Shown: positions 29,620-50,028 of the stretch, in pieces
Layout: every line of letters starts with the position of its first letter
How positions within the stretch are numbered: the stretch's first letter is position 1
From: an uncultured Clostridia bacterium
GTDB lineage: Bacteria > Bacillota > Clostridia > Christensenellales > UBA1242
Length of the DNA stretch: 63,643 bases
NCBI GenBank assembly: GCA_944359935.1
Contig: CALVTD010000002.1
Coordinates: 1-63,643 of the forward strand
Direction: 5' to 3'
Translations under genes and position numbers: made by a program
Notes under the pieces: model-generated
What the model was told of the DNA's origin: nothing
Seen by the model: the letters and a program-made list of their open reading frames with translations, nothing else
Database searches by the model: none

Positions 29620-29679
29620 TTCAAAATTTGACATAAAACGACAAAATCCTGAATAGGTTACTACAAGGAGGATTTTGCC

Positions 29680-29928: not shown

Positions 29929-29930
29929 CA

Positions 29931-29967
29931 TTATTCGCCTTTAAAATAAAGGCGAATAATTGTTTTT
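29931..29967. terminator. Bidirectional terminator between the convergent genes spoIIID and ttcA-like
   Basis: TTATTCGCC (29931-29939) pairs with GGCGAATAA (29951-29959). The flanks are T-rich. Confidence 0.7.
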
Positions 29968-30729: not shown

Positions 30730-30759
30730 TTGACAAAATTCTGCCATTTGTTCTATAAT
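30730..30759 (+). promoter_or_regulatory. Sigma-A type promoter of the giant gene
   Basis: TTGACA (30730-30735), an 18-nt spacer, then TATAAT (30754-30759). This leaves a leader of about 80 nt ending in GGGAGG (30834-30839), 5 nt before the ATG. Confidence 0.55.
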
Positions 30760-30844
30760 TTTTTTGTATTAAATATTATTATTTTTTTTGTGATAAAAAT
30801 TTATATTTTTTCGCAATTTAAAAATAATAATTTGGGAGGAATAA

Positions 30845-33800
30845 ATGAAAAATAAATTTTCCAAATTTTTCGTTGCACTTTTGAGCACATTCCTACTTTT
30901 TGGAGGCGTGGTTTTTACCGCGTGCGGTGAAGCGGCTCACGCAACCATTTCAGTTTCCTCACAAGATTTTGTAAGCGAAGATTACATAGAGATTGACCTT
31001 GGCTCGGACGACACAACCGCTTTGATTACGGCAACGGTTGATGGCGTTTCTTCGGGTAGGGTTAGTGTTAACAACGATTTCCAAAGCATAATTTCCGCAA
31101 ACGCGGTTTACAACGAAAGTTCAAACTCCACGCAAATTACCATTGAAGGTAAAAGCGAAGGTAGTGCGTCCATTGTTTTGCGTTCACATGAAGGCAATGG
31201 ACAAAAAGTGATTAACGTTTATGTTTACAGCGACATTCTTGGCGTTGAGCAAAAACAAGATAGCGCGGGCAGCAGCAATCAGTATGTGGTTAAAGGTGAA
31301 GCCACGGTGCTGGATAGCGACAGGTTTTTGTCATTCACATCCAGAGAGGGTGGCGAGAGCAACCGCAAAGATGTTACATGGCAACTTGTAAGCATCGATG
31401 AGCATACAACTTTGGAAGGCAATGTGCTTACAGTTGGGCAGGACAGCACACTCACAAATGTTTTACTTAGGGCAACCTCAGTTTACAAGCCAGAGTATTA
31501 TGCTGATGTGAATTTAACTGTTGTTTCGGCATTGCCAGACATTCAACTTGACTTTTCTAGAAATCCAGATGCGTTCAGCGACCAGATTGAAGAGGGCGAA
31601 AGTTTTAACATCGTTAAAAATGACGACTCTCAGGAAGAGGCTGTTGGCTACATCAGGCTCACTGTGGATACTCCTACTGGCGGCGACTTGCCAAGTTTGC
31701 AGGTTGACAGAATTGTAACTGGTGAGGATGGCGAGAGCAGCGCAAGGGTTAGCATCACCACCTACAACACACCTGTAAGCGCAACTTCCACACAAATAAT
31801 CTATCAAATCAGGGCCATTGCAAACGATGCAAACACTTTGCCAGAGGTGCTAGATGTTAGATTCGATGTTGGATATGAAAATTTTAACTACACGAAATCT
31901 TCGGTTAACTTCCAAATCAATTTGGTGGATGTAATTGACAGAATTGAAGTAACTTCAAACGGCCAAACCATCACATCGGGTGATGAACTGGAAATCTACG
32001 ACAACTATAACGGCGACAGTTCCTATCAGTTTGGTCGCCCTTTTGTGGTTTCATTGGGCCCAGACACCGTTGCAAACGACCAGGCACTTTTTGACATTGA
32101 ACTTTCTTCTGCGGATGGTTTAAACATCAACGATTACATACGGATTTATAACGAGCGCGGCCAGCAGATTGTGTTAGAGCAAGACGGCAACGCTTTTGTT
32201 GCGCGCGGACTTGCAAACAACTCACTCATTTACATTAGAACGGCTGAAAACTTTGAGGAAGAGGCAGCAATCGATTGCAGGTTTGTTTCTCAGCAATCTC
32301 CATCTGTTTATTTGGATGTAGACCTGGTTTGCTATCGTTCTCCAAATGCTAATTTCAGCATAGGCACTCAGGCGGTTAGGTATATTTCCACTTATGGCGA
32401 AAACACGATTCTGGTTGAGGTTTATTCCACCTCACTTGTTGGAATTAACAGAGGCCTTTCACTCAGCGATGTGCAAAGTGATTTGTTTGAAATTTCCAAT
32501 TTCAGTTTTGACTCTGCAACTGGAACAATCAGGTTTAATGTTTCAAATCTGCAACAAAACATTTCCAATGAAAATTTAAGCATCTCGCTTTACATAAGGC
32601 ATGAAAATGGGTATAGGTCTATTGAAAACATCGTAATCGCTCCATATCTGCCAATGAATGAGGCGTCAATCACGCATCAAGGCCAGTCAAGCACCGCAAT
32701 TTCCAAAGTGGAGTATGACATCCAAGATTTTGGCGCTATTGAAGGAAGCAATTCGCTGCAATCGCTGATTATGAGGCTGGGCAGCAGTGTTACATTAAAC
32801 TTAAACACAAATTCAGCGACAAGCATTTCGTTTGCGTTTAGATACAACAATGCCGCAATGCCAGAAGACATCAACGCGGACAATTTAAACAATATTCTTG
32901 GGCTGTTTGCAAATGCTGAAACAGAGCAGGATAGATACGCAACTTTTGATTATGCCACAAACAGGTTGACTTTGGCGGCAAACGATTTTAAGGGCTATGT
33001 GCTTTTCACTTTCACAGGGTATGATGAAAACCATGGCCAAGTTTTGGCATACAGAATTTTCTATCTTGAAAGTTACACTCCGCCAACAAGGCTTTCGCCA
33101 AACCCAAGCAATTTAACCTTGACAGCGCTTGATTCCATTGCACAGCAGGAGCGCGACCTTGCCACACAAAGCGTTTCAATTTCCTACCGTGTGGACGGCA
33201 ACGCAATCACTTATGCAGGCGCAAATTATGTTAGTTTCCAATCCGTTGCAGGGTTGACGGGCACTTATGGCGACAATTACATTAAATTTGGAAACTACCG
33301 CATTGAAAATATTGTTATTACTAACAGAAATATAACTTTTGATATCATCGCTGAAACCACAGACGGATATCAATCTTTCACCGACCAAATTGTGGTTACT
33401 TACACAGTTTTTGGAATAAATTATCTTGCAACCATTGATTTGGTTATTGAAAACGCAGATAGGGTTGAAGTGGTTGAGTGGGAAAATGCCTCGGCTGACG
33501 GAATAATTTACCTTGATTTGTATGGACAATCCACCGAGGACACAACCTATCCGCTTATTACCAATGTAGAACCTAGCGATGCACACAACATTGAACTTGC
33601 CTATATGTTTGTTCCAAACGCAGGCACTCAAACAGACCTTGTTGAAATAAGCGATTTGGGCGTGGTAAGCATAAATGACAACGCAACTGTGGGCGGAACG
33701 GGATATATTTTCATCTATCCAAAGGACGCTGTAAGGGTTTATGATGGTATTGAACAGTTTGTTTATTACATTGATGATGAGAATGGCAACGCCGACTCGT

Positions 33801-36800
33801 ATCAAACACCACTTACACAACTTGGCAACTACTTTGAGCAAATTGCCTCTGGCTATTACAACAAAATTGATGGCACGCAGCAAACAAAAATTTATTACAG
33901 CCAATTTATTCAAAGAATAGAGGTTGTTGTGGCTGACGGACTTAGCGAAGAAACCGCAACAAGAATTTATAACTCCACGCAACTGGAAAACATTCAAACC
34001 AACAGACACTATGAACTTATGAACTCAGTCACACTTAGCAATTGGCAGTCGCTTGCGGCGCTCACCGGTTCGCTTAGGGGAACAGATGAAAATGTTGTGA
34101 TTTCGTTCACTGGCACTTCACAACCACTGTTTGAAAGCATTGGTGAAGGCGGCAGAGTAAGGCAATTTAGGGTGATTGGTAATGTTACAGGCGGAGGCTT
34201 TATTGCCAATGAAAACAATGGCGAAATTTCAAACATCACAGTAGGTGTTGACAGCACTGGCGAAACAGTTGCTCCAAGCAAGGTTACAGGCAAGGAAATT
34301 GCAGACACAGCCGTTTACGCAGGTGCAATTGTGGGCTATAACACTGGCTCTATCACAGATGTAAGGGTTGAAGGCGCAAGTGTTGAAATTGCAGGCAATT
34401 CATATGCCGGCATGATTGCGGGCTACAACAGCGGCACCATTACAAACGCATATGCCGAGTTTTATATCTTCTCTTCTTCCACAACGGGCGATGGCGAAGA
34501 TGCCGTAACAACAAATCAAACAAACACCATCAGCGGACAATATGTGGGAGGCTTTGTTGGATACATGGCTGGCGGAGAGATTAGCCACAGTTATGTTTAC
34601 AACTATAATTTAAGCGGCACCACACAGGCTACTCTGCCATTGCAGGGCGCCACAGACGACACAGTCGGCGCGTTTGCAGGCTATGTGGCTGGTGGAAGAG
34701 TTTACAACAGTTTCTCACTGATTTTTGCAACCGAGAATGATGGTTTAAGCGAAGTAGGAGAAGAGGCGGAAGGAGCCACATTTACCACCGCCGATGTTTA
34801 CTGGGGTTATGGCAGCAATCGTGAACGCATAAATAACAGCAATAATTGGATTTATAAAGCAGACACCAACAATTTCCAATCATATGTTAGAAATGACGAG
34901 CAGCACTTGACATTCTATCAAGAACAGATGGTTGAAAATGTAAACGCCTTTACAATTGCCTCGACAGAGCAATCTGTTCCAGTTGGCGCAGATGCAGGAA
35001 TTTTGTATATTTACAAACTGCGCTCCTCTTACAACCTTTCTGACAGTCAAAACAGTGAACTTACTGCCTACAACACTATTTCACTTTCAACGCTTTTTGG
35101 CGAAAGCGGCAGCAATTTGGTGGCTTTAAGCAACAATTCAAACATCGCTGAAATTGTTGGAAATAACATTGTTCTGCACGATGTGGGCGACTTTGAACTT
35201 ACAATTTCTTCCAAACAAAATTATTCACTTTCAAAAACTTTTGCCATTAAAGTTTTGTATGTAATTGACGACTTTACAATTTCTCACAATGAAGTGCAAA
35301 CCTCTGGGTTTACTGTGCAAGAAGGCAAAAGCGCCAATGTTGATTTTTCAGTGACCAGCAACATTTATTTGCGCGGGCAGTCTTTCAATTTGCAATTAAA
35401 CTCGATGCAAATCAACATGAATTTGCAAAACGAAACGCTTGAAAATAATGTAGACCTCACAGTCAATGGCATGGTGGGGCAGATTACAGTTCTTCCTGGC
35501 ACAAAACAACTTGCAAGCAATTTTGTGGTTGATGTAAACATCTCCGTTACAGGGCTTGATGAGGCATATAACGAAGCAATCATGGGCGCGTCCCAAAGGC
35601 AGTTAACAATTACACCAGTGCTTGGCGCAAACGACATAAGAATCAGTGCCGATTCGCTTAACATTGTGCCAGCATATGACTCTAAACTTGAAGTGGTGCT
35701 TGTTACTGACGAGCCTAGCGACGACCTTATTCTTTCGGTTATGAAAGACGATGCAGAGGCATACTTGACGCAAAGGGCAGACGAAGAGGATGGCGACAAC
35801 CTTATCTTCTCATTTGCTGGCGAGGATGTGCTTAACATACACGTTGCAAAATCTACTGTTAACGAAGGACAAATTTCTTACACTTTAACTATTTCGATAA
35901 TAGATTCATATCGCTCCACAATTATGCAGGCGGAGGGGTATACTCTTTACATATCCTCACAAACTGGCACAACTGATAAAGAAAACATCCCAGTTTCATT
36001 GACTTTAACCAGTCAGCCTATCAACCATGTAGACATAACAAATTATAGAGGCGGCAACACCTCTTCAACAAATGGCGTGAATGTTTATTCTAGAACTTAT
36101 GAGGCAGTTTCAGTGCTTTCACCAGGACGCAGTTCTGTTATGGAAATTTACATTGACCCAGACTTTGCTTACTATGAATACATGACGTTAACCTATCAAA
36201 ACACAGACGGCGCAGTGCTTGGCATCACAAAGATGGATAGGTATAACGATTCTAACAATCAATACACCACCGACACTTCCTCAAATGTTTCATACATTGC
36301 AAACGGAGTGAGGGTTGGCAGAGAAAGCGATGGGTTCTTTGCGTTTAGGCTTACCGCAGCCGGAAACATCTCGCAAGACACAACCTTCATTTTGTCAGCA
36401 AACTTCTATGACGCAAACGGAAACCTTGTTTGCGAAACAACCACCTATGAACTTTACATTTCATATTTGCCAGAAGCAGAAATCACCATTGACGGCGAAA
36501 TAAGCGCGCTTGTGGCAAAGGGTGGAAACTTGCAACTTACAATCATGCTTAGAAACGACCAAACCTTGGATGCACTCATCCCTGAAAACACAACTGGCAT
36601 AACCATTGCGCCAGAAAGCACTTGGGTTGTTACTGACAACCAAGACGGCACAAAAACAATAACTGCAAACCTTTACGCAAACCTTAATGCGGGCGTGCTT
36701 AGTGGTAAAACTGATGAAGAAAGCGGCCAGCCTATTGCTGAGAATGGCGAGTTTACAATCAGGGCACAGGTTTCAAGAGTAACCAACGGCGTGCAAGAAA

Positions 36801-39800
36801 TTAAAACCTCTTACGCATATGTAACCATTGTGGACTTTTTGCCTGAATCGGCAAGCGTTCAAGAGGCAACTTATGACGAAGATTTGGGAATGGATGTTTT
36901 AAGTGCTTACATTGGCATTCCAATTACCATTGATTTTGATTACACCTTTAATCCAGAAACATACGCTTACGACAACTCTAACCCAGATGAGGCAGCCCTT
37001 GCTCAAGAACTTTATGAGGCAAGAAACACATTCACAAGCACAGGCGGTTACACTGATGCTGATGGCTCATTCTCAATCAACGTCTCAAATGGCGCGGTTG
37101 TGCCAATCTATGAAAGGCTTTACAACGGCAATCAACGCCTTGACTTCACTGAAACCAGCCCTAAAACTTGGGTCTATTCAAACAGCAACTTCCGTTTAAC
37201 TTACAGGCAAACAAGTGCTACTGACGGCGTTTTAACTGTTTTGGGGCTTGTTACAACTTCTAGCCCAATTCAAATCACACTGAGAGACACAATCACGCTT
37301 ATAAATTCAGGAAGCAATGTGTCTTACACAATAAACACAACTTTTGCAATTGGGGTTGAGGTTCATTCCGACCAAGATTTGCCGCTGCTTATTGAAGATG
37401 CGGAAGACTTTTTGCAGGTTGCCCAAGAAGGAACTGCACAAAATTACATTTTGATGAACGACATTTATCTTCAAAATTACACCCCAATTTCAGCAGCAAA
37501 CTTCCTCAGCCTGGATGGAAACGGGCACACAATTCACATTCAGTCATTTAACACCACTGGCTCTGGCACTTTAAACTTGGCGCTCTTCACAGAGATTCCA
37601 ACCGGCTCTATAATGAAGAACATCAAGGTCAACTACTACACAGGTGGGAAAATAACCGTTGACACCACTTCGTCAGGTTACAGCACAATCAACATTGCAG
37701 GCTTTGCAATCACAAACAGCGGAACAATAACAAACTGCGAGGTTGTGGCTTATGAATACGACGGCGCAACCGTTCAAAACGGCGATGTGGGCATAATTGT
37801 AAGTTATGTTAGAGGTTCAACACCATATTACATTGGCGACGCTTCAATCACCAGCAATGTTGCAGGCTTTGTGATTACAAATGCCGGAAGCATAACCAAC
37901 AGCAAGGTTGGCGGTGAGGAAATCATCGTAATTGGCGAGCAGATTTTAGACACCAACCGCACATCTTACTCAACCGTGGAACTTGACAACTTTGTGCTTT
38001 CTGCACAAGGGCAGATGGCAGGCTTTGTGCTTACAAACTCTGGCGATATTGCATCATCGGGGGTTAAAAACATTCAAATCACAAACAATGCTTCGCTGAC
38101 AAGCAGTGAAACAGGCGGGTTTGTGGTTGACAACTCTGGCGAAATTAGAACCTCATATGTTGAAGGGGCGGGTGAGCAGACGCAGGTTGAAAACGATGTT
38201 TCACCACACTTCACAGACACCAACATCTCTTCAAGAGGGATTGTTGCAGGCTTTGTTGTAAACAACAACACAAGCGGAAGAATTTCAAATGGTTATTCAA
38301 ACATATTAATTAAAAATGACAGCGAACTTAAAAGCAGAACAAGTGCCGGCTTTGTTTACACAAACGAAGGGCACATTGAAACATCACTTTCTGCTTCCTA
38401 TGTTGAAATGGCCGACCTGTTGCAACTTGGCTTCTCGGGCGTGGACAGAAACGGCAACAGTTTAAATAGTGGAACTATCGAATTATCTTATTATATAAAT
38501 GAAGATTACAATGACGACTCGCTCAGCGATGTTCAAAATGTAATCTCAAATCAAGCCACACTTGTGGACAAAAACGAAATAAGGTCCAACAACGCTTATT
38601 ATGGCTTTATCTTTGCCAGCGAAAACTCAACAGAGGATGGCGTTTGGATGCAAAGCGCTTATGGGCCAAAACTTGTTAGCACTCAAACTTTGACAGTCAG
38701 CCATAGATACTATGTGGCAATCTCTCAGGATGAGTATGTTTTGCCATATGCAATTTTGGAGGACACAGCAAATTCTTCCTCTGCAAGATACAATACCGCT
38801 TATGGCAACGACATCAACCCAATTTTAATCACCTCTGCACTCGATTTTAGAGATGCAATGGGTGAGTCGACTTCAACTTACATCAGTGCCTTCTTTAATG
38901 ACACTGAGGTGTTTGGCTCTTACAGATTTACCAGCGACATTGACCTTTCACAACTCAACAATGAGCAGGGCAATGCAGAGGTTCAATCCATAGATAAAAC
39001 ATTCAGCGGAACAATTGACGGAAACGGATTTGCCGTAAACAATATTTCAATCCGCTCTTCAAACAACTCTGTGGGCTTGTTTGGACAGGCACAGACGGCG
39101 GTTATCAAAAGCCTTGACCTTGTTGTAGACAACGTAACGGCTTCCAACTCATATGTGGTTGGCGGACTGGTTGGTTTGGTGCAAGACTCAACAATTATTG
39201 ACATTAACCTCACGCAAAATGTGGCAGACGAGGCTTCATCCGGCGTGGGAGTGCTGGGCAGAAACATCGCTGGCGGAATTATCGGTGCGGCTTTTGGCAG
39301 CACAAGGCTTAACGGGCTTACAGTAAATAATGTTATTGTTCAGGCATCTTACTATGATGACAACACCTCCACAAACACAAGTTCGCTTGAAAGCATGCTT
39401 TACAGAACAGGCTTCAACCCAACTTTGATACGAAACAGCCAGCGTCAAAACATTAACAACTTCTACTCCAACAACATGCAAAACGGTGGCGTTGGAATGG
39501 TTTCATTTGCGGGCGGAATTGTTGGATATTTGGATATCTACAATTCACTGGAAGCATCATACACCGGCTTTGTTTATGGTGGCATCACAAGCACAGATTA
39601 TTCTGTAACAAAACTGTTGACGCAAGGCTCTGTTGATGTGCGCGGTGAAGTTGCAGGCGGTGTGTTTGGCTACACAGGCTATCAAACAAAGGCACAAGAC
39701 ATTGGCATTAAAGTTGCAAAGAGCGAAAACTCATATGCAAGCATTCTTTCTTACAACTATTTTGCAGGTGGAATTGCAGGCTTGGCCAATGGACAATTCT

Positions 39801-42800: not shown

Positions 42801-45800
42801 TTTCAATTGAAAACACAATCAACTATGGTGATGTAATTTACACCTATGCCGATGGTGAAAGCGGTGAATCGCAATTAGCCGATTATTACTTCGGCGGAAT
42901 TGTAGGTCAGTCGGTGGTTGCTACGGAGGATACTCCACGTGCAAGAATACAAGCAGAAGGCAACATCATTGCCTTCACAAACAATAACCCACGCTTGGCT
43001 TCGAGCAAACATGAAACCAGCGCACTGATTGGTGACGGCGGAAGCGCGTTGCTAAGCAACAACAATTATTATTCTTCACAACTTGTGCTTGCTGTCAGCG
43101 ACGAAACAAGAATGGTAGACTCTACTTATGTTAGTCGTAAAAATGTAACAAACTATGCTGGATATGGCACAGTTAACACGACTAGTATATTGGATAGAAT
43201 TTCAGCGCGCCTTGGCGAAACAGATTTAGGCACAAAAATTAACCCTGTAACAGGTGACGGCTCGGCAGACGCTAACACCAACGGCATTAAATACTATGCT
43301 GTTGTGCCTAACGAGGGAGATTTTGCTGACAATTTCGCATACATCGGTGATTTTGCAGAAATCAATTCACCAATTTCCACTGTGGGAGAGCATAGTTTTG
43401 TGGCTGGCGTTGTGGTTAATAATAATGCTGATGACGAGACTTCTACATATGAAGATCAAACTAATGTTGGCGGCTTAGTTCACAACCTTAACGGCGGCAT
43501 AATTTATGCAAGCATGGCAACTGGCACACTTTCAGTTGGCGGAACTAACGTTAAAAACATCGGCGGTTTGGTTGGCTTGATGAATGGAGGGTTGATTGCT
43601 GAAAGCACCTCATCAGTCAACATTGTGTATCGTGCTGGCAAAAATGGAACAACCTATGGCACAGCCTCCGGAATTGCCACAACAGGCACATCCGCTGGGA
43701 CAACTGGGACAACTTACAATTACTTTGATAAAGTCTACTCAACAGGCGAGGTGGCTTCCTATATCAGCGCCAATGTTTATGCGTTCACGAATGGAACAAA
43801 TGCAACAGTGCGCGATAGTTACACAATCAGCAAGGTTAATCGAAAAGATTACACCGCCGAAGCAGTAAGTGGCACAATCGGCGTGTTTGGCGAGGCTAGC
43901 GCGCATGATAATGCAGGAAACTGGTATGATGGAAATGCCACTGAGGTTCAAGAAAATGTTGGAGCAAGTGCGACAAATTCTACAACAAAAACACTTGCAT
44001 ATAATGCCGCAGCAGTGGATCCAAATGCTGGTTGGAAACAAAACATTGAATATAACTATGGCTATCCAACGCGCAATTTTGCGGCATTTGATGTGTCAAC
44101 AACAACAGAAGATGGCTATTACTTAATTCCAAACGCAACCAAACTTGCGCAAATTGATGATGGGCCTGACTTGAATTATAAACTTGTGCGTGACATTGAC
44201 TTGTCAAAAACAAGTTTTGCTTCTACTGATGATAAAAGTTCATGGAAAAGTGTGGAAAACTCTGCAATATTTGATGGCGATGGTCACACAATAAATGGGC
44301 TTATTAAAGCAACCTTGTTTAGTTCTGCTGGCACAATTCAAAATTTAAGAGTTACCAATGCAGAAGTTACTACTGGCAACGCAGTTGTTGCAAATTCGAT
44401 TGAAAATGCAACCAACGTTATTGCTTCTGGAACATTGACAATAACAAAAGCAGCCCAAAATTCAAAAATAGGCGGTTTGTTTGCAGCAAGTACTTATGCC
44501 GGTGCTCAAATTTCAAACTGTAAAAACTATGTTGCAATCACGGCAGAGGGTGCTAGCCTGTCTGTTGGTGGCATTATTGGATCTTTGCCAAATGAAGGCA
44601 GCAACACGATAAAAAATTGCTATAACTATTCGCCAATCACTGTAAACTCAGCGGGCGGCTATGTTGGCGGAATTGCTGGACAGGCAAATACCATTACAGG
44701 GTCTGGCAACGAAAACACCGTGTTCAACGGTTACACCACAAAAATAACCACAACTAACACCACAACAGAAAATAATTATTATGCCGGCGGAATTGCAGGA
44801 ATGGCAGGCAGCGTTTCCGATTGCTACAATACCTCAATGGTTAAAGCGGGTCACAAATCAAACACCGAAGCCTCTTACGCAGCCGGTATTGTTGCTAATG
44901 GAACGGCCTCAGGTTGTTCTAATGAGGGCTATATTGAAGCGTTAGGAAAAAATTACGAAATTAGTCAAATTAGCAAACCAGGCGTTAGCGTTAGTGGCAC
45001 TGAGGTAAAGTTAAATAAAAATTTAACATATGGCGGAGGCACTAGAAATGTGTATGCCAGTGCAATAGCAATAAATGGCACCACAATTTCCAACTCTGGA
45101 AATAATTCAGGAAGCGTTTATCAAAATGGTAATTTTGGCAAACAGACAATTATAAAAGAAGGAACTCACTATGACATAGCCACCTTAGGTTTAAACAATG
45201 TTCAGTTGACTAAAACAGGAGACATTACAATTAGTCTCACAGGCGAACTTGTTGTTGCTGAACTTGATGCACTTGGCGGGCCAAAATCGTTCTATATAAA
45301 AATCACCAGAAATATTAATTATGGCAGTGGTGTCGACAAGCCACAAACAATTTACACCTCTTTACAAACCATTAGAAGCACATATGAAAGCCAAGCATTA
45401 ACATCCGGGGACGATTCAACAAGCATTTCTCGTTCCGCAACAACGGCACCAGAAGGAACTAATGCTTTGCAATCTGTCAATATCGGCGGCAAATTATATG
45501 CATTTGTAAAAGATGCAGATGCGTTTAAAAGCACGACAAATTCTGGTTATGCTGTTGCCACAACAACATTGCTGGGGACCGTAGAATTAAGCCATAGCAC
45601 AGCAAGCGATGATGACGCAACAATTGCAGACCTGATCTCTGCGGGTTATACATTCAGTGTGTCAAGCACGACAACAAACGTAACTGGTGTGGCGTCAATC
45701 AACAGCGCGAGAGATGGCTTAAACATTACTTTCACATATCCAACCGGTATAGATAGCATCGCTTACTCAATAACCGCTACTAAGAGCGCTTACAACCAAA

Positions 45801-48800
45801 CAATCACAATAAACCCAAGCAATTTGTTTGTTGGCACTGAGAATGACAAAACAGTGATTTCCATATCCTTATCATTTGATGTGATAACGGGCGCAAGCTT
45901 TGACATAGGGGGCTACAAATTTAAAGCAGCGGACGCAAGAGAGTTAACCTATACGGTAGGCAAAGACGAAAATGCGAACACAATAATCAGCGCACTTAAC
46001 GGAAACTCATATCTTATCAACACCAATGCAGGTTCAACATACACCACAAACGGAGATGGATATGGTTCGTATACTTTCTCTTCTCAGGCAGGATCTTACG
46101 ACTTAGAAAACGACTTAGAAAAAACATACACGGGCACAAGGCAGGAATCAACAGACCTTGCGTATATTGACACAGGTTTAAGACCTGTTGCAATGGATGG
46201 TGATCTTGTAGCAGGCATGACAATAGGCACGCCAACTGCTGATGATAGAATCACGTTAGCCGCGGCTCCTACTGTAAATGCAGCAACAGCAAGTGCACAA
46301 GTTGAATTCACAATTCGCGTGTTAGGGCATGTTGATTACATCGAAGCACTGGATATACAAGCGAACTGGTGTGGTTATGACGAGATCAATGTTGGAGACC
46401 GTGTGGACCTAAATAATTTTAGAAGTGCATGGTTAGGTGTATGGATGCATCATCATTTAAGTGGCGGGACAGTGGTTAAAGACTATGATGATTTTGAGGC
46501 GCATATGCAAGTTCGAGGAGTAACTTATACTGAAACCTATACGGAAATTTCGCTATATGTTCTTATGGTCTCTGACCTTGATGAAAGTGTAAGTAATATT
46601 ACAGGAGACTTTTGGACTCAAGTCGGCATACCTGCAATGGTTTTAAGGTTTAGTTACGAAGATGGCACCTCTCTGCCAGAAAATTCTACTTTTGAATATG
46701 CTTATGAGCAAACTTACACAGAAAACATAAGCCTTGCTGATGGGTCAACTTTGAATTTAACATACACAAAAATTGATGGAACCGAAGAACTTAGTTGGGA
46801 CCTTGCATATGCAACAGACACAGGCGGCATACTTGGATATGAAGTCTATCAGTATGATGGCGTATATTACTACACTGGCTCGGCAACATATCGTTTAACA
46901 TCAGCGACTATAACCATTGGTGGGTATGATAATGATAACCATACCTACCTAATTAACGGCAATTATTATCACATAAATGCTGGCACAGAAATACTTAATA
47001 ATACAGTAAAAAGAGTTAGCATAGCGGTTGATGACATGAAAAACGATGCGGACAAAACAATTGATATCTATGAAAGAACAACAACGTCAAGCGTTTCATA
47101 CACCGTGACAGAAGAAAATTATTATACGGCTGGCACAGCTACCGCTGCTCTTTACGAGGAAAAACTTGTTTTGATTGACCAAACCGAAGCAAACACAATA
47201 ACCTCTTCTGATAGCAGCATCACAGTGAATGGAACAAGTTATACAATCTCATACTCGATGAGTGATGGAAATTATATTGTAACATTCACTCCTGCCAGTG
47301 GAGATGCAATTGTGTCTCAAAATGACATGGCAGTGTTTGGCAATCAGGAATACAGTGTTTATTTTGATGAAGAAAACGGCACCGTAACCTTAAACCCTCA
47401 ATACTCTGGCAGCGCGGGCATGCTCACTATTGGCGGAACCACATTGTTCTATATTTTGAATGGTGATGGAGATATTGTGGTATATCAAAATGGCGAGGAA
47501 TATGACGTAGCGAATAATAACTACACAATCACAATAAATGGCACAACTTATGCAATTTCAAACAGAAGTGAATTGGTTGAGGATGAGCTTAACGTTACGG
47601 TTTCTTCAACAACAAGTGGAGAAGGTGATGACGCAACCACAACCTACACGCTAACCTATACCAGGTCTGACGGAGTGATTGAAAGTTATCAATTTGTGAG
47701 ATTTGAATATTACCTTGAACAACAGTCAGCACAAACAAGCATCACGCTTCGAAATGATGCGCAAACCGTCACTGTGCCTAATGGTGGCTACATTGATGGC
47801 GATATTGCTGTTACTGCTAGTGGTCCATATGAAGGTTATGATATAGTCGGCAATCAGGTTACATTTGATGCATTTTCTGGTGAAAACAGCAGAACCTACA
47901 CGATATCAGCCAATTACAAAAACTATTCCGTTGGTAATCAAAGTGTTAATGTAAGTGGTAAAACCTACAATTTCGATGGAGTGGTATTGCGCGGCGACAT
48001 TGATTTGGGTGCGCTTAATGACTCATTAACATTAAACATACAAAACAAAGGGTTGCTTGTTGGTGATGGATACTTTGTAAACTACTATACTTCAACAACC
48101 AGTTTATTTAAAGCACCAGATAACGATAACGACAACGTTAATGTTAACATTATCAAAGATTTGAATGTTGCGGGTACAGTGGCGCCAACCTCTGGCGAAA
48201 AGGCAGGTATTTTATTAGATGTTGTTAAAGCCAATTTGAACAATGTTAAAACCTATGGCACAATCACCACTGCTAAAATTACTTATAACAGTTTTACTGC
48301 TGGTGGTGTAGCGTATGAAATAAGCAGTTCTGCAAACATTACCAATGTAAGCAACTTTGCATCATTCTCTAATAACAGCAAAAGTTTCAACATGGCGGGC
48401 ATCGTATACACAGCGACAGGAACATCATGGGCCGGAAGTGTTTCAAACTATGGAACAATTGTCGGTGTTCGTGGCGATGACGGCACAGGTGCTGGCGCTG
48501 CAGGTGGCAAAGGACAAGATGTTTATGCAATCGCGAACACTATCTCTTCGCAAAATGTAAATTCTGCGAATATATACAACTATGGAGTAGTAAAAGCGGG
48601 CGATGGTGGCAACGGCCGCCGAGGCGCAGATGACATAGGTGGAAGTGATTTAAAAGATGATCAAACCACAAATTGGTTAGAGTATGACTCTATTACAAAA
48701 AGTAACTGGACTTTTTCTCCTTATTACATGTTTGTGCTAAGCCCGTTAGCGGATAATGCCAACGAATATTTATATAAAGACGATAATGGTTATCTTACTC

Positions 48801-49546
48801 CAACTGAAGAGGGAATTGCTTATTTGCTTGCAGAAAGTCCGTTATGGGCAGGTTGGGATGATTGTTATATAACATCAGATGAATTATATTTCATCAAAAA
48901 AAATCCATCATGGTTGTCATGGACAGGCGACGCGACAGTTGTTAATAAAACTGGTGGCGCTGGCGGCAGCCCTGGAACAGCATACTATTATGGCAATGTT
49001 TCCAATAGTCACACAGCGACTGAGGAAGAGCCATATACAATAAGCGGAGCGTTATTGACGGGAACAGAAGGAAAAGATGGCGCACGAGGTAACGATGGCT
49101 GGGGCGGAATCAACTTGATAAAATACACTTCTTCAATAAACAGTAAAGGAACATATGATGTCTGGGGTTCTTTATGGAAAATCAATTTAAATGGTAACCG
49201 AAATAGCAATGACGATAATATTTCTTATATAACTTCAACCTTTTCTTTTGATGAACCTAAGGCTCCTGCAAACATAGATTCTTGTTTTGATTCCAATGGT
49301 AATTTTGCTGCAGATGCTTGGGGCGGCCCGGAAGGTGGACTAAGTGGAACGTGGATAAATATAATTTATAATAACTATAAAACTGCAGGTTATATCTCTT
49401 GGGTTGAAATGAGGCTTCATTTGGGAGGTGCTGCAGGGGGTGACGACAGAACGCTGCGATCTGCATATCAAGCATTCTATGTAACAGAAGGAATAACAAG
49501 TGCTATTTGCTATGATTATTCTGCTGTTAACTCAAATACAGATTAA
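30845..49546 (+). CDS. Giant (6,233 aa) putative lipid-anchored surface protein: Ig-like arrays, repeated GLUG-type beta-helix modules and a glycine-rich C-terminal module
   Basis: Uninterrupted ORF with a strong Shine-Dalgarno. The signal MKNKFSKFFVALLSTFLLFGGVVFTAC has a lipobox Cys at residue 27. A Big_2-like segment reads ...ITIEGKSEGSASIVLRSHEGNGQKVINVYVY. I count about 40 copies of h-GG-hhG-(4-8 aa)-G-x-I-x-N motifs, for example VGGFVGYMAGGEISHSYV and IGGLIGANHATISAITNV. There are five module-opening motifs of the type Y.L..DIDL...F.G.(F)DGNGHTI. No LPXTG, SLH or C-terminal TM. Confidence 0.9.
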   Translation: MKNKFSKFFVALLSTFLLFGGVVFTACGEAAHATISVSSQDFVSEDYIEIDLGSDDTTALITATVDGVSSGRVSVNNDFQSIISANAVYNESSNSTQITIEGKSEGSASIVLRSHEGNGQKVINVYVYSDILGVEQKQDSAGSSNQYVVKGEATVLDSDRFLSFTSREGGESNRKDVTWQLVSIDEHTTLEGNVLTVGQDSTLTNVLLRATSVYKPEYYADVNLTVVSALPDIQLDFSRNPDAFSDQIEEGESFNIVKNDDSQEEAVGYIRLTVDTPTGGDLPSLQVDRIVTGEDGESSARVSITTYNTPVSATSTQIIYQIRAIANDANTLPEVLDVRFDVGYENFNYTKSSVNFQINLVDVIDRIEVTSNGQTITSGDELEIYDNYNGDSSYQFGRPFVVSLGPDTVANDQALFDIELSSADGLNINDYIRIYNERGQQIVLEQDGNAFVARGLANNSLIYIRTAENFEEEAAIDCRFVSQQSPSVYLDVDLVCYRSPNANFSIGTQAVRYISTYGENTILVEVYSTSLVGINRGLSLSDVQSDLFEISNFSFDSATGTIRFNVSNLQQNISNENLSISLYIRHENGYRSIENIVIAPYLPMNEASITHQGQSSTAISKVEYDIQDFGAIEGSNSLQSLIMRLGSSVTLNLNTNSATSISFAFRYNNAAMPEDINADNLNNILGLFANAETEQDRYATFDYATNRLTLAANDFKGYVLFTFTGYDENHGQVLAYRIFYLESYTPPTRLSPNPSNLTLTALDSIAQQERDLATQSVSISYRVDGNAITYAGANYVSFQSVAGLTGTYGDNYIKFGNYRIENIVITNRNITFDIIAETTDGYQSFTDQIVVTYTVFGINYLATIDLVIENADRVEVVEWENASADGIIYLDLYGQSTEDTTYPLITNVEPSDAHNIELAYMFVPNAGTQTDLVEISDLGVVSINDNATVGGTGYIFIYPKDAVRVYDGIEQFVYYIDDENGNADSYQTPLTQLGNYFEQIASGYYNKIDGTQQTKIYYSQFIQRIEVVVADGLSEETATRIYNSTQLENIQTNRHYELMNSVTLSNWQSLAALTGSLRGTDENVVISFTGTSQPLFESIGEGGRVRQFRVIGNVTGGGFIANENNGEISNITVGVDSTGETVAPSKVTGKEIADTAVYAGAIVGYNTGSITDVRVEGASVEIAGNSYAGMIAGYNSGTITNAYAEFYIFSSSTTGDGEDAVTTNQTNTISGQYVGGFVGYMAGGEISHSYVYNYNLSGTTQATLPLQGATDDTVGAFAGYVAGGRVYNSFSLIFATENDGLSEVGEEAEGATFTTADVYWGYGSNRERINNSNNWIYKADTNNFQSYVRNDEQHLTFYQEQMVENVNAFTIASTEQSVPVGADAGILYIYKLRSSYNLSDSQNSELTAYNTISLSTLFGESGSNLVALSNNSNIAEIVGNNIVLHDVGDFELTISSKQNYSLSKTFAIKVLYVIDDFTISHNEVQTSGFTVQEGKSANVDFSVTSNIYLRGQSFNLQLNSMQINMNLQNETLENNVDLTVNGMVGQITVLPGTKQLASNFVVDVNISVTGLDEAYNEAIMGASQRQLTITPVLGANDIRISADSLNIVPAYDSKLEVVLVTDEPSDDLILSVMKDDAEAYLTQRADEEDGDNLIFSFAGEDVLNIHVAKSTVNEGQISYTLTISIIDSYRSTIMQAEGYTLYISSQTGTTDKENIPVSLTLTSQPINHVDITNYRGGNTSSTNGVNVYSRTYEAVSVLSPGRSSVMEIYIDPDFAYYEYMTLTYQNTDGAVLGITKMDRYNDSNNQYTTDTSSNVSYIANGVRVGRESDGFFAFRLTAAGNISQDTTFILSANFYDANGNLVCETTTYELYISYLPEAEITIDGEISALVAKGGNLQLTIMLRNDQTLDALIPENTTGITIAPESTWVVTDNQDGTKTITANLYANLNAGVLSGKTDEESGQPIAENGEFTIRAQVSRVTNGVQEIKTSYAYVTIVDFLPESASVQEATYDEDLGMDVLSAYIGIPITIDFDYTFNPETYAYDNSNPDEAALAQELYEARNTFTSTGGYTDADGSFSINVSNGAVVPIYERLYNGNQRLDFTETSPKTWVYSNSNFRLTYRQTSATDGVLTVLGLVTTSSPIQITLRDTITLINSGSNVSYTINTTFAIGVEVHSDQDLPLLIEDAEDFLQVAQEGTAQNYILMNDIYLQNYTPISAANFLSLDGNGHTIHIQSFNTTGSGTLNLALFTEIPTGSIMKNIKVNYYTGGKITVDTTSSGYSTINIAGFAITNSGTITNCEVVAYEYDGATVQNGDVGIIVSYVRGSTPYYIGDASITSNVAGFVITNAGSITNSKVGGEEIIVIGEQILDTNRTSYSTVELDNFVLSAQGQMAGFVLTNSGDIASSGVKNIQITNNASLTSSETGGFVVDNSGEIRTSYVEGAGEQTQVENDVSPHFTDTNISSRGIVAGFVVNNNTSGRISNGYSNILIKNDSELKSRTSAGFVYTNEGHIETSLSASYVEMADLLQLGFSGVDRNGNSLNSGTIELSYYINEDYNDDSLSDVQNVISNQATLVDKNEIRSNNAYYGFIFASENSTEDGVWMQSAYGPKLVSTQTLTVSHRYYVAISQDEYVLPYAILEDTANSSSARYNTAYGNDINPILITSALDFRDAMGESTSTYISAFFNDTEVFGSYRFTSDIDLSQLNNEQGNAEVQSIDKTFSGTIDGNGFAVNNISIRSSNNSVGLFGQAQTAVIKSLDLVVDNVTASNSYVVGGLVGLVQDSTIIDINLTQNVADEASSGVGVLGRNIAGGIIGAAFGSTRLNGLTVNNVIVQASYYDDNTSTNTSSLESMLYRTGFNPTLIRNSQRQNINNFYSNNMQNGGVGMVSFAGGIVGYLDIYNSLEASYTGFVYGGITSTDYSVTKLLTQGSVDVRGEVAGGVFGYTGYQTKAQDIGIKVAKSENSYASILSYNYFAGGIAGLANGQFYQVYAEHEESVQDAIEDTTSAYYISANTSTERGVLDLFRYTGQEGTGEYRYYPKYVGGLMGVMGSGTIYVGYNKLNAINYTTDGVSYAGGIAGAAIAGSSYYIDNNATQLRVLTNLYMQEVYSTGDVYAYGGEYNGGAISQTENHAFGGLFGVLEDNENLVMSSVNSFAHYGILDNPYYEQSAENTTGATIYAVAGKVDADASVTVMPSSTAISNSEGNTSSEITSLKSFGYMNSYSAAGISLTVEPYPGYDAEQAADADYYFVITSVSSFTSQTEGFTITNGAFINSRAWSNENWVHTTNTLYPEINFVNTVNYIYLDQNNVEIVLDRMQNSSIEVRVRGRNADGNGYGMVDLRGYDINIEGFSGTIVGYSTSADWGEDNAPELIRTSYYKESSDDTNASGYPGLIIDEPIFASTGSGFSVENLNIVVERADTPSTDEPFEFTGGIISSADVTDATIEGVTVYVRSPIVVNDLASNAGLLVPNAVNTSFRNIEIIFAYNLASGSSYIEFRHNPDEGDNNDGLNVGLLAGTILQNSIFEALRIQDITIKHPSLESANHVFQVNASGSVYAGLYAGRLAENVSNGTGSSGDGETEQPASPTQNYAGVIVEVKAPELTGSSTGDSMTSSISIASLINGETPTTLTSLTLGGYFGELTSQNARLALSTEQTYTQKIALRVSSSASTVTIGGIAGTAQLQNFEVNNTAQSDGNTLSTDVYLGSSAKLTNTTMGMLFGEASGSFNIQNLTVNGLLQSTAEGDAEGSLNKVSSIGGLIGANHATISAITNVAVNFDAYKDSKPALNNSAFTTGANNSVAIESLSFGGFIGTNYGSVSLTEGTNGEDNTYNNSGENYVAFAGDPTTFNLGDLIGSNVGNGLSVSNFASNGITVVNAADTSEILSIGGLIGSDNTAYITNIAASSSGADVQVLSNFFISAQNVNAGGMIGNLVKATSSNSKVISNAVFGGAFKFNITAEADNADGIHSVGGMIGKVPDSSDGGNVTETISIENTINYGDVIYTYADGESGESQLADYYFGGIVGQSVVATEDTPRARIQAEGNIIAFTNNNPRLASSKHETSALIGDGGSALLSNNNYYSSQLVLAVSDETRMVDSTYVSRKNVTNYAGYGTVNTTSILDRISARLGETDLGTKINPVTGDGSADANTNGIKYYAVVPNEGDFADNFAYIGDFAEINSPISTVGEHSFVAGVVVNNNADDETSTYEDQTNVGGLVHNLNGGIIYASMATGTLSVGGTNVKNIGGLVGLMNGGLIAESTSSVNIVYRAGKNGTTYGTASGIATTGTSAGTTGTTYNYFDKVYSTGEVASYISANVYAFTNGTNATVRDSYTISKVNRKDYTAEAVSGTIGVFGEASAHDNAGNWYDGNATEVQENVGASATNSTTKTLAYNAAAVDPNAGWKQNIEYNYGYPTRNFAAFDVSTTTEDGYYLIPNATKLAQIDDGPDLNYKLVRDIDLSKTSFASTDDKSSWKSVENSAIFDGDGHTINGLIKATLFSSAGTIQNLRVTNAEVTTGNAVVANSIENATNVIASGTLTITKAAQNSKIGGLFAASTYAGAQISNCKNYVAITAEGASLSVGGIIGSLPNEGSNTIKNCYNYSPITVNSAGGYVGGIAGQANTITGSGNENTVFNGYTTKITTTNTTTENNYYAGGIAGMAGSVSDCYNTSMVKAGHKSNTEASYAAGIVANGTASGCSNEGYIEALGKNYEISQISKPGVSVSGTEVKLNKNLTYGGGTRNVYASAIAINGTTISNSGNNSGSVYQNGNFGKQTIIKEGTHYDIATLGLNNVQLTKTGDITISLTGELVVAELDALGGPKSFYIKITRNINYGSGVDKPQTIYTSLQTIRSTYESQALTSGDDSTSISRSATTAPEGTNALQSVNIGGKLYAFVKDADAFKSTTNSGYAVATTTLLGTVELSHSTASDDDATIADLISAGYTFSVSSTTTNVTGVASINSARDGLNITFTYPTGIDSIAYSITATKSAYNQTITINPSNLFVGTENDKTVISISLSFDVITGASFDIGGYKFKAADARELTYTVGKDENANTIISALNGNSYLINTNAGSTYTTNGDGYGSYTFSSQAGSYDLENDLEKTYTGTRQESTDLAYIDTGLRPVAMDGDLVAGMTIGTPTADDRITLAAAPTVNAATASAQVEFTIRVLGHVDYIEALDIQANWCGYDEINVGDRVDLNNFRSAWLGVWMHHHLSGGTVVKDYDDFEAHMQVRGVTYTETYTEISLYVLMVSDLDESVSNITGDFWTQVGIPAMVLRFSYEDGTSLPENSTFEYAYEQTYTENISLADGSTLNLTYTKIDGTEELSWDLAYATDTGGILGYEVYQYDGVYYYTGSATYRLTSATITIGGYDNDNHTYLINGNYYHINAGTEILNNTVKRVSIAVDDMKNDADKTIDIYERTTTSSVSYTVTEENYYTAGTATAALYEEKLVLIDQTEANTITSSDSSITVNGTSYTISYSMSDGNYIVTFTPASGDAIVSQNDMAVFGNQEYSVYFDEENGTVTLNPQYSGSAGMLTIGGTTLFYILNGDGDIVVYQNGEEYDVANNNYTITINGTTYAISNRSELVEDELNVTVSSTTSGEGDDATTTYTLTYTRSDGVIESYQFVRFEYYLEQQSAQTSITLRNDAQTVTVPNGGYIDGDIAVTASGPYEGYDIVGNQVTFDAFSGENSRTYTISANYKNYSVGNQSVNVSGKTYNFDGVVLRGDIDLGALNDSLTLNIQNKGLLVGDGYFVNYYTSTTSLFKAPDNDNDNVNVNIIKDLNVAGTVAPTSGEKAGILLDVVKANLNNVKTYGTITTAKITYNSFTAGGVAYEISSSANITNVSNFASFSNNSKSFNMAGIVYTATGTSWAGSVSNYGTIVGVRGDDGTGAGAAGGKGQDVYAIANTISSQNVNSANIYNYGVVKAGDGGNGRRGADDIGGSDLKDDQTTNWLEYDSITKSNWTFSPYYMFVLSPLADNANEYLYKDDNGYLTPTEEGIAYLLAESPLWAGWDDCYITSDELYFIKKNPSWLSWTGDATVVNKTGGAGGSPGTAYYYGNVSNSHTATEEEPYTISGALLTGTEGKDGARGNDGWGGINLIKYTSSINSKGTYDVWGSLWKINLNGNRNSNDDNISYITSTFSFDEPKAPANIDSCFDSNGNFAADAWGGPEGGLSGTWINIIYNNYKTAGYISWVEMRLHLGGAAGGDDRTLRSAYQAFYVTEGITSAICYDYSAVNSNTD
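48542..48619 (+). repeat. Left arm of a 78-bp inverted repeat, inside the giant gene
   Basis: 73 of 78 positions are identical to the reverse complement of 49908-49985, by manual alignment. This includes perfect blocks of 30 nt (48562-48591) and 27 nt (48593-48619). It encodes ...SQNVNSANIYNYGVVKAGDGGNGR. Confidence 0.9.
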
Positions 49547-49550
49547 AAAA

Positions 49551-49574
49551 ACGGCTAAATTTAGCCGTTTTTTA
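49551..49574. terminator. Bidirectional terminator shared by the giant gene and the inverted cassette
   Basis: ACGGCTAAA/TTTAGCCGT is a perfect 9-bp stem (49551-49568), flanked by an A7 run and a T5 run. Confidence 0.85.
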
Positions 49575-50028
49575 ATAGCCATAGCATACTGTTGATAAGA
49601 ATTCGCCTTCTGGGCCTGCATATACATTAAAAGTAACATTATCACAAGTATATCTTAGAGATTCATATCCATATGATCCAGTTATATTATAATAAATTGA
49701 AATGTTTCCATATGTATTTTGATTGTTTGTATATGTTTTTGTCCCGCCAGTTCCATTATACCAACCTGCCGTATAACCAGCATATGTTCGCAATGAATAG
49801 TATGCTATTCCCACCGAGCCTGCTGCTCCACCAGCGGCCCCTTTGGTGCCGTTTGTTGGAGCGGTTCCGTCTGTGCTGTCGATGCCTCCTTTTCCGTCTG
49901 TGCCGCAGCGGCCGTTGCCACCATCGCCCGCTTTCACTACTCCATAGTTGTATATATTCGCAGAAACTGCATTTTGCGCAGAGATAGAGTAATGAGAGGT
50001 GGTTTTGTCAAAAACAATTTTTTTTCAT
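49572..50028 (-). pseudogene. Start-less paralog (silent cassette) of the giant protein's C-terminal glycine-rich module
   Basis: The open frame 49572-50024 encodes ...DKTTSHYSISAQNAVSANIYNYGVVKAGDGGNGRCGTDGKGGIDSTDGTAPTNGTKGAAGGAAGSVGIAYYS...CYGY. The giant protein has ...ANTISSQNVNSANIYNYGVVKAGDGGNGRRGADD...NKTGGAGGSPGTAYYYG. The only upstream ATG (50026-50028) is in another frame behind an A8 run and stops after 6 codons. No Shine-Dalgarno and no signal peptide. Confidence 0.6.
49908..49985 (-). repeat. Right arm of the 78-bp inverted repeat, inside the cassette
   Basis: See the left arm (48542-48619). The codon phase is the same in both arms. Confidence 0.9.

Follow-up and report, generated by a model that had tools for sequence, protein, structure and literature searches.

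The window analysed here, a 63,643-nucleotide (nt) stretch of DNA from an uncultured bacterium of the Clostridia (contig CALVTD010000002.1, family UBA1242), contains a single giant gene whose product has 6,233 amino acids (aa). Our analysis leads us to regard this protein, with somewhat better than even confidence, as a giant lipid-anchored, adhesin-like surface fibre of a gut clostridium, the tip of which is diversified by recombination with a silent cassette. In the model that we favour, Sec export would be followed by lipidation of Cys27 by Lgt and cleavage of the signal peptide by Lsp, leaving a chain of ~664 kDa tethered to the membrane by its N terminus. At least four to five GLUG-like right-handed beta-helix modules, alternating with stretches found only in the clade, would form a long, rigid, and segmented fibre, and a Gly-rich junction, NYG[IV]VKAGDGGNG...GNDGWGG, would demarcate a distal tail of ~300 aa. 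The diversity of the tail would arise by homologous recombination with a silent inverted cassette directly downstream, through segmental gene conversion, inversion across an 80- to 120-nt repeat, or both. Crossovers would occur via the two conserved motifs, NYG[IV]VKAGDGGNG and GNDGWGG, and tails would also move between lineages. Such recombination would alter the specificity or the antigenicity of the tip.

As the tail is the fastest-evolving part of the protein and recombines, it most likely forms the exposed tip, with a ligand-binding or immunodominant role. An adhesin or contact-organelle role is our best guess for the fibre from these sequence features and suits the way of life predicted for the lineage, and we infer its shape, as well as the rate and mechanism of tail exchange, from the comparisons described below. 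A previous sequence-only reading of this DNA had considered the size of the protein exceptional for a Firmicute. This was overstated, as proteins of 10,000 to more than 30,000 aa have been reported from gut Clostridia (bioRxiv 10.1101/2023.11.21.568195). The interest of the protein lies not in its length and instead in the cassette-diversified tip, the large fraction of the chain without relatives, and a likely role in a partner-dependent lineage with reduced genomes. Giant beta-helical surface proteins and silent-cassette exchange of C termini are both known already, and the novelty is their combination in an unusual setting.

Table 1 Positions of the giant gene, its signals and modules, and the adjoining cassette in the window
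Feature	Position	Strand	Remarks
Sigma-70-type promoter, TTGACA-18 nt-TATAAT	30730..30759	+	12/12 consensus positions
Shine-Dalgarno sequence, GGGAGG	30834..30839	+	5 nt 5' of ATG; read directly
Giant coding sequence	30845..49546	+	6,233 codons/aa, zero internal stops
Lipoprotein signal peptide and lipobox VFTA|C, Cys27	30845..30925	+	PROSITE PS51257 rule
N-terminal region, aa 28-1035	30926..33949	+	Clade-only; hhalign versus module profile ~0.2%
Module 1, GLUG beta-helix, aa 1036-1300	33950..34744	+	Pfam GLUG at aa 1156-1180 (34310-34384) and one further stretch
Inter-module region, aa 1301-2175	34745..37369	+	No Pfam match; hhalign ~0.1%
Module 2, GLUG-like, aa 2176-2600	37370..38644	+	hhalign 90%; six repeat units
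Module 3, GLUG-like, aa 2655-3190	38807..40414	+	hhalign 59%; four profile-positive repeat units
Module 4 region, long divergent GLUG-like, aa 3296-4419	40730..44101	+	Nine repeat units
Module 5, beta-helix with N-terminal capping helix and FDGDGHTI motif, aa 4420-4790	44102..45214	+	Predicted by AlphaFold2/Foldseek
Inter-module region, aa 4791-5699	45215..47941	+	No Pfam or PHROG match
Module 6, last solenoid-like module, aa 5700-5935	47942..48649	+	Ends in Gly-rich junction NYGVVKAGDGGNG (48578-48616)
Left inverted-repeat arm, aa 5898-5933	48537..48642	+	106 nt, 87% complementary to 49885-49990
Expressed variable tail, aa 5934-6233	48644..49543	+	Second conserved motif GNDGWGG at 49088-49108
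Perfect 14+14 palindrome, A/T runs on either side	49546..49573	.	After the giant stop codon; inverted repeat I8
Silent tail cassette	49575..49994	-	150-codon open frame, opens near 50024, stop codon 49572-49574
Right inverted-repeat arm, 5' end of cassette	49885..49990	-	Partner of 48537-48642

Expressed tail and silent inverted cassette

The expressed tail of the giant protein and the silent cassette lie back to back at the 3' end of the gene. The sequence-only reading had missed the cassette and the 106-nt inverted repeat, the hypervariable recombining tail, and the reduced-genome context. The left arm of the repeat, inside the giant gene, encodes "...ISSQNVNSANIYNYGVVKAGDGGNGRRG", and in all species the repeat homology to the giant begins sharply at CTATCTCT. 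The flank specific to the giant reads TGTTTATGCAATCGCGAACA, and the cassette body contains "...GACGGAAAAGGAGG". On the minus strand, the cassette frame mirrors the C-terminal domain of the giant protein, with the sequence "...ISAQNAVSANIYNYGVVKAGDGGNGRCG...GPEGEFLSTVCYGY*". The two tails abut across a palindrome that was missed by a consensus scan and is probably a bidirectional terminator between them. No ATG, Shine-Dalgarno sequence, or promoter-like site facing the cassette was found in five strains/species, and neither the space between the tails nor that separating the cassette from the next gene, radC, contains an ORF (open reading frame). The cassette is, in short, a promoterless and start-less partial copy bounded by sequence that it has in common with the expression site, and such copies are found in other species as well.

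The length of the cassette varies among the related loci (numbered here with the prefix L). In L009 and L016, it comprises 304 codons and represents a complete alternative tail, and compared with this form the window cassette has an in-frame deletion of 154 codons between two AYY motifs. In four other strains/species, cassette frames of 279 to 328 codons are open, with a chance probability of 1e-8 to 1e-10 each. The ratio of nonsynonymous to synonymous divergence (dN/dS) of the window cassette versus L009 is 0.24, based on small counts. An exhaustive HMMER search with the last 1,200 aa of the giant protein against 1.84 billion representatives retrieved only 12 proteins, most of which are "genes" of 130 to 380 aa whose sequence begins at the junction motif or close to it and diverges thereafter. 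Three of these junction-starting relatives were checked in their context and likewise turned out to be convergent cassettes. P0011 and P0020 are located between the end of the giant gene and radC in other species, and P0017 lies on a short contig with the same convergent layout. The starts called for cassettes of this type are TTG or GTG without a ribosome-binding site. A scan of JGI metagenomes yielded no further tail or cassette loci.

The tail itself could be assigned to no Pfam or PHROG family, and its AlphaFold2 (AF2) model, computed from a 13-sequence alignment, has a predicted local distance difference test score (pLDDT) of 43. Kinship with phage tail fibres was considered and rejected, as the sole match, between one tail and a collagen-like PHROG, was weak and driven by composition.

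Comparing the two arms of the repeat provides evidence of recombination between the cassette and the expressed gene. Over the 80-nt repeat core, the expressed and cassette arms of one genome differ at 4 to 8 positions, whereas orthologous arms differ at 9 to 14 positions between species, which indicates that the arms evolve in concert. Individual patches are also visible. The expressed arm of L014 contains a cassette-type patch, ATGCAGTT in place of ATGTAAAT, and an expressed-type patch is present in the cassette arms of the window, L011, and L014 and absent from the cassettes of L009 and L017. Patches have been exchanged both ways within the window's species. A larger exchange was found in L027, where the expressed copy is of the expressed type up to GNDGWGG and then of the silent-cassette type of L028, through and past the stop codon. 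Synonymous divergence (dS) between L027 and L028 is 1.12 upstream of this crossover and 0.12 in the swapped tail, which shares 85% nucleotide identity with the L028 cassette over 508 nt and shows a dN/dS of 1.6. That L027 and L028 are related by a reciprocal inversion was rejected, as the silent copy of L027 is a third tail type and not the expressed type of L028. Mosaic expression is present between these lineages, and within the species only short reciprocal patches in the repeat arms were found. Collectively, the L027/L028 mosaic, the concerted arms, and the patches imply that the tails behave as exchangeable modules, which move between silent and expressed copies and between lineages.

Variation among strains is present in two further places. 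A patch of the tail at 49243-49462 (aa 6133-6206) occurs as two alleles, "DEPKAPANIDSCF...RTLRS" in the window, L011, L014, L015, and L018 and "KRWEGYSTSFNNG...RSIKY" in L009, L010, and L017, and neither allele is derived from the local cassette. In addition, the stretch at 46072-46882 (aa 5076-5346), inside the inter-module region aa 4791-5699, is hypervariable and mosaic among strains, matching L009-type strains at ~95% and not being alignable with L011, L014, L015, and L018 (E 1e-20). The tail has the opposite affinity, being identical to L011 and unlike L009. These opposite affinities imply inter-strain recombination inside the giant gene.

Several observations weigh against a cassette-diversified adhesin. 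The term adhesin is drawn from architecture and evolutionary pattern only, because the tail, with its low pLDDT, and ~60% of the body are without fold assignment. A flipped orientation was seen in none of ~11 assemblies of the window's species, long-read ones included, all of which show the majority orientation only. The cassette orientation in related loci is identical to that in the window. Similarly, no recombinant junction was seen within the window's species except for the short conversion patches. L027 and L028 are diverged lineages, and their mosaic therefore represents exchange over evolutionary time and not programmed switching. The cassette of the window strain has lost 154 codons, those of L010 and L017 are frameshifted, and in a more distant relative, L032, radC directly follows the giant gene and the cassette is absent, which makes the cassette dispensable. 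Moreover, the minus strand at 60789-61748 encodes a member of the class II fructose-bisphosphate aldolase family (PF01116), and fructose-bisphosphate aldolase is generally missing from UBA1242 according to a survey (PMC12306168). The explanation may be an atypical lineage, an enzyme of different specificity, or a family placement in need of checking.

It is conceivable, though rather unlikely, that the locus is a shufflon or partial intergenic inverton, in which an invertase encoded elsewhere often flips the 1.45-kb segment by programmed site-specific inversion so that cells express either tail. The geometry is exact, one arm being located within the gene at its 3' end and its partner beyond an inverted alternative C terminus, an arrangement also found in the R64 pilV shufflon, the phage Mu G segment, and partial intergenic invertons (Milman et al., Chanin et al., PMC10028968). 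In the giant gene, flipping the segment would likewise exchange one C-terminal domain of a surface or receptor-binding protein for another. The boundary of the repeat at CTATCTCT is sharp in all species, and partial intergenic invertons are widespread (PMC10028968). However, no recombinase family was found among the precomputed Pfam calls, which cover most of the 63.6-kb window, and the repeat, with its length of 80-120 nt and its imperfect match (83-91%), differs from the typical short sites of invertases. The single orientation in ~11 assemblies and the nonreciprocal silent copy of L027 also argue against a switch, and the patchy mosaics with differing crossover points suit homologous recombination better. 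Overall, homologous recombination, by segmental conversion with possible occasional inversion, fits the sequence comparisons better than a dedicated invertase switch.

A lower probability is assigned to the cassette being a nonfunctional, decaying relic of an old inverted 3' duplication, with a tail that varies by mutation and inter-strain recombination. The deletion in the window, the frameshifts in L010 and L017, and the lack of a cassette in L032 would agree with decay, as would the fact that no switched form was seen within the window's species. However, the long cassette frames are open in four lineages at saturated synonymous divergence, the deletion in the window is in-frame, and the cassette dN/dS is well below 1. 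The concerted arms and the lineage that expresses the cassette-type tail of another are likewise at odds with a mere relic.

The favoured exchange between cassette and expressed tail resembles the vls system of Borrelia (VlsE; PMC11499132, PMC9159922), which also has a single lipoprotein expression site, adjacent inverted and promoterless cassette sequence, and patchy segmental transfer. Two hallmarks of silent-cassette antigenic variation of the vls, pilS, and tprK type are present at the giant locus, a partial promoterless copy and expressed mosaics with cassette-derived tracts. The giant locus, known here from sequence comparison, differs in having one cassette as opposed to ~15, and it is the C-terminal domain that is replaced, whereas the central region is replaced in vls. 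In addition, it resides on the chromosome in a housekeeping context, and in some strains its cassette has decayed or proved dispensable. The locus, which has a single expression site, a single silent cassette in inverted orientation, and two short crossover motifs, may represent a minimal form of exchange of C-terminal domains by a commensal Firmicute.

Probable lipid anchor and segmented body

The N terminus of the giant protein carries a lipoprotein-type signal with Cys27, as proposed in the sequence-only reading, and the sequences given there for both termini were confirmed. PROSITE rule PS51257 calls for a positive n-region, a hydrophobic h-region, and the pattern {DERK}(6)-[LIVMFWSTAG](2)-[LIVMFYSTAGCQ]-[AGS]-C with the cysteine at position 15 to 35. 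The sequence LLFGGVVFTAC matches this pattern, the cysteine is residue 27, and three lysine or arginine residues are among the first 7 residues; the rule and Cys27 are likewise satisfied in the three orthologs (L019-L021). A recognisable C-terminal anchor is lacking, which also agrees with the earlier description: the LPXTG-type sortase signal LP.T[GAS] is absent throughout the 6,233 aa, no C-terminal hydrophobic segment is present, and the signal peptide is the sole transmembrane-like hydrophobic segment. The genes lgt and lspA were not recognised among the Pfam-annotated products, which cover only part of the window. In the Pfam lists of the locus contigs, no sortase, secretion, glycosylation, or chaperone gene adjoins the giant gene, just as had been stated before. 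Judged from its signal sequence, the giant protein is probably lipidated at Cys27 and displayed on the surface. The mature protein has a computed mass of ~664 kDa and an isoelectric point of 4.2, and the chain is acidic, Cys-poor, and beta-rich.

To describe the body, Pfam and NCBIfam profiles were run on long pieces, on 2,000-aa pieces (E<=10), and on 300- to 930-aa pieces (E<=1) of the protein. The long pieces gave no Pfam or NCBIfam match. The sole significant Pfam family is GLUG (PF07581), found in two stretches at aa ~1156-1200 with an E-value of 2.3e-9 and 37.5 bits versus a cut-off of 20.5, and ~95% of the protein is Pfam-negative. The Big_2-like Ig segments of the sequence-only reading were not recovered, as neither Big_2 (PF02368) nor any other Ig-like profile matched the 2,000-aa pieces at E<=10 or the 300- to 930-aa pieces at E<=1. 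The ~40 GLUG-type repeats that had been counted by eye are of the right order, since a loose coil motif has 42 matches, 26 of which pass a self-derived profile (0 in 10 shuffles). By the Pfam profile, on the other hand, GLUG is confined to module 1 and was not detected in modules 2 to 6, even at E<=1. All but one of the repeat units are inside the six modules listed in Table 1.

For module 5, six weak relatives were found in the databases. Two of these carry Pfam GLUG, one of the two also a dockerin, and a family profile built from the six was used for hhalign and PDB searches. Module 1 matches this profile at 94%, module 4 at 40% over aa 3640-4100 and weakly elsewhere, and module 6 weakly at 1.3%, whereas the inter-module regions and the tail reach only ~0.1-0.2%. 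Among known structures, the profile matches the IgA1 protease chains of Streptococcus pneumoniae (E 1.5e-8). The AF2 model of module 5 is an all-beta solenoid with a capping helix, with a predicted template modelling (TM) score of 0.78 and pLDDT values of 80 to 95 over residues 50-280. Its top Foldseek match is 3N6Z, a "putative IgA1 protease" of Bacteroides ovatus (E 7.8e-5, TM score 0.42-0.46), followed by pneumococcal IgA1 protease structures, all with a probability >=0.97, and thereafter by generic right-handed beta-helices with nonsignificant scores. The AF2 model of module 6 shows short beta strands with pLDDT values of 55 to 76. These profile comparisons indicate homology among several of the modules, which are GLUG-like beta-helices akin to that of IgA1 proteases; the fold is predicted by the model for module 5 and by homology to it for the others.

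The remaining regions (aa 28-1035, 1301-2175, 4791-5699, and the tail) make up ~60% of the chain. No Pfam, PHROG, or PDB relative was found for them, ortholog profiles included, and no homologs were detected outside the clade. The region aa 28-1035 has no Pfam match, its ortholog profile has no PDB relative, and the databases yielded only three related fragments, all of them from the clade. The ortholog profile of aa 1401-2600 gave no significant PDB relative either. As this fraction, including all tail variants, is free of relatives outside the clade and of a predictable fold, it represents a source of new domains.

The nearest kin of the modules is the GLUG domain of IgA1 proteases (S. pneumoniae ZmpA, 6XJA/6XJB/7JGJ/7UVK; B. 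ovatus BACOVA_03286, 3N6Z; PF07581). Both share the capping motif DIDL...F.G.FDGNGHTI and the coil motif GG[ILV][IV]G, although only module 1 of the giant protein reaches the Pfam threshold of the GLUG family. The giant protein differs from IgA1 proteases in having no M26 domain, HExxH, G5, or LPXTG, and it contains the module about six times per chain, as the building block of a fibre and not as an accessory to an enzyme. No HExxH zinc site exists in the 6,233 aa, and Pfam detects neither Peptidase_M26 nor any other peptidase family, so that the giant protein is not a protease. An identity as an IgA protease or other enzyme was rejected on the same grounds, the absence of HExxH and of a catalytic family. 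The sequence-only reading had likened the body to right-handed beta-helix adhesin or protease passengers; the modules are indeed beta-helices of the GLUG/IgA1-protease kind, and no protease motif accompanies them.

Compared with other giant surface proteins of Firmicutes (bioRxiv 10.1101/2023.11.21.568195; Lactobacillus kunkeei, PMC4494060), the protein is similarly very long, beta-rich, of extracellular type, gut-associated, and presumed to be adhesive. However, the metagenomic giants contain tandem RCC1, Listeria-Bacteroides, and YG repeats as well as dockerins, whereas the present protein has no detectable tandem repetition and is almost entirely Pfam-negative. Its predicted N-terminal lipid anchor and cassette-exchangeable tail also set it apart from other giants, and it differs from LPXTG fibrillar adhesins in lacking both LPXTG and recognisable tandem stalk domains.

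The same architecture could belong to a structural part of the envelope or spore surface, such as a substitute for the S-layer, a wall spanner, or an exosporium fibre, and not to an adhesin, which we consider improbable. The gene resembles a core gene in its conservation and synteny, its promoter is strong and of constitutive type, and the lineage has kept sporulation genes, with spoIIID ~150 nt from the neighbouring ttcA. However, diversifying evolution is centred on the distal tail, where dN/dS reaches up to 1.6, and cassette exchange of tails is typical of tips exposed to ligands or immunity and not of scaffolds. In addition, the promoter follows the sigma-70 consensus and is not of a sporulation-sigma type.

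Even less probable, and in our view very unlikely, is a contact weapon akin to polymorphic toxins, in which the tail would be a delivered toxin and the cassette an orphan toxin module of the CdiA-CT/Rhs type. Like CdiA-CT and Rhs-CT proteins, the giant protein is a huge filamentous, beta-helical carrier with a conserved junction before a hypervariable C-terminal domain, the downstream spare module is start-less and has only the junction in common with the expressed tail, and tails are exchanged between lineages. However, no immunity ORF follows either tail, because the tails abut across the terminator, and a scan of 10 tails recovered no family of toxins, nucleases, or peptidases. Moreover, the orphan module is inverted and not direct, no dedicated export partner of the two-partner, type VI, or type VII secretion kind was found, and the known systems are not anchored by an N-terminal lipid.

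Integrity and conservation of the gene

The giant ORF, which occupies 29% of the window, was confirmed to be uninterrupted. Its promoter and Shine-Dalgarno sequence, also pointed out in the sequence-only reading, hold up as well: the promoter is conserved in the orthologous loci L019-L021, and orthologs have GGAGG at the position of the Shine-Dalgarno sequence. BLAST detected no internal repeats in the protein, and the gene has essentially no tandem repeats at the DNA level, so that there is nothing to collapse during assembly. By searching for contigs that encode both flanking genes, the same locus was retrieved from many independent metagenome assemblies. Gene-caller products of 6,199, 6,204, 6,213, and 6,231 aa are present in at least four independent assemblies (other samples, other assemblers), and independent contigs jointly tile the entire gene and are colinear. 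The gene is split in only three contigs, which are noisy and have names in the style of long-read assemblers. These contigs also break uvrA, and one of them breaks uvrB too, implying that the splits are sequencing errors. The comparisons indicate that the giant ORF is a real coding gene with a fast-evolving distal half. That it is an assembly artefact or pseudogene (chimeric, collapsed, or decayed), as its metagenomic origin and the splits in some long-read contigs might suggest, is effectively refuted by the intact products, the lack of collapsible repeats, the colinear orthologs in three species, the dN/dS below 1, and the damage to uvrA/uvrB in the splitting contigs.

The survey of related genomes suggested in the sequence-only reading revealed three orthologs among the GTDB species representatives, in an uncultured Clostridia metagenome-assembled genome (MAG) (65% identity), Clostridiales UBA11517 (43%), and an "Eggerthellaceae" MAG (42%). 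In each, the frame stays open over at least 4,528 codons, up to the end of the DNA examined, and the alignment is colinear across ~4,500 residues. The orthologs have the upstream gene order, the promoter, and the lipobox with Cys27 in common with the giant. In the ortholog alignment, conservation is highest at aa 2200-3100 and lowest at aa 3600-4200. Module 2 lies within the best-conserved part, with 81-87% and 50-69% identity to orthologs, and module 4 is the least conserved part of the body, with 25-50% identity. Between strains, dN/dS of the giant gene is 0.17 in the 5' half and 0.51-0.68 in the 3' half, whereas values of 0.02-0.04 were obtained for mfd, uvrA, and uvrB at similar dS. These ratios suggest that selection on the giant gene is purifying but relaxed.

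A word-indexed search of 5.8 billion proteins returned fragments only, never the full-length giant or same-species copies, and the C-terminal 1,500 aa had zero matches in that database, same-species copies included. As giants thus seem to be missing from or lost by the word-indexed database, clade-level absence calls from it are unreliable. One of the orthologous loci, L021 (CAVCJG010000003.1), is labelled "Eggerthellaceae bacterium" (Actinomycetota), and yet its Mfd shares 98% identity with the one in Clostridiales UBA11517, and the whole locus is present in it as well. Almost certainly, this contig was mislabelled or misbinned.

Host and neighbouring genes

The flanking proteins of the window are 58-72% identical to those of UBA11517 and 79-92% identical to those of the closer MAG. 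UBA11517, the closest relative with a name, corresponds to Ca. Caccovivens in the Christensenellales family UBA1242 (PMC8035907). Judged from this one relative, the window likely belongs to the same family. Genomes of UBA1242 measure 0.67-1.6 Mb, mostly <1 Mb, lack most biosynthesis and standard transporters, and have kept sporulation genes, from which dependence on partner cells was predicted (PMC12306168). The family is common in animal guts and is predicted to live off other cells, the mode of contact being not known (PMC12306168). If the placement is right, the giant gene would amount to 1.2-2.8% of the genome at these sizes, and this context makes it more remarkable than its length alone does. 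A conserved gene that would fill 1-3% of such a genome is an obvious candidate for the contact machinery of UBA1242. Going further, the fibre could be the attachment organelle of an obligately partner-dependent, Patescibacteria-like Firmicute of UBA1242, with a tip that is retargeted by one cassette, and the tails, traded among species, would set the specificity for partner or host. This wider proposal is speculative, and we regard it as unlikely on present evidence.

Among the neighbouring genes, radC (50093-50806), encoding a JAB-domain protein, is always located 3' of the giant gene or the cassette and is tandem-duplicated in two related species (L028-L030, L032). Two small genes at ~29300-29960, between an M23 peptidase gene and ttcA, were placed from gene calls on related contigs and encode a PP-binding acyl-carrier-type protein (76 aa) and SpoIIID (82 aa). 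The short distance of spoIIID from ttcA, given above, fits the retention of sporulation genes in a reduced-genome lineage.

Upstream of the giant gene, a 605-aa protein encoded at 24473-26290 on the plus strand has its own lipobox, LVAGC, and no Pfam family. A "PrsA-like" label for this protein was dropped, as it had no Pfam support. It represents a second conserved lipoprotein, being present upstream of the giant gene in all four species with 58-79% identity. Farther away, at 18765-19877 on the minus strand, a 370-aa ORF without a Pfam family in the precomputed calls encodes a surface-type protein with an N-terminal signal-like segment and a C-terminal transmembrane helix followed by KKEKVY, and it is conserved in related contigs.

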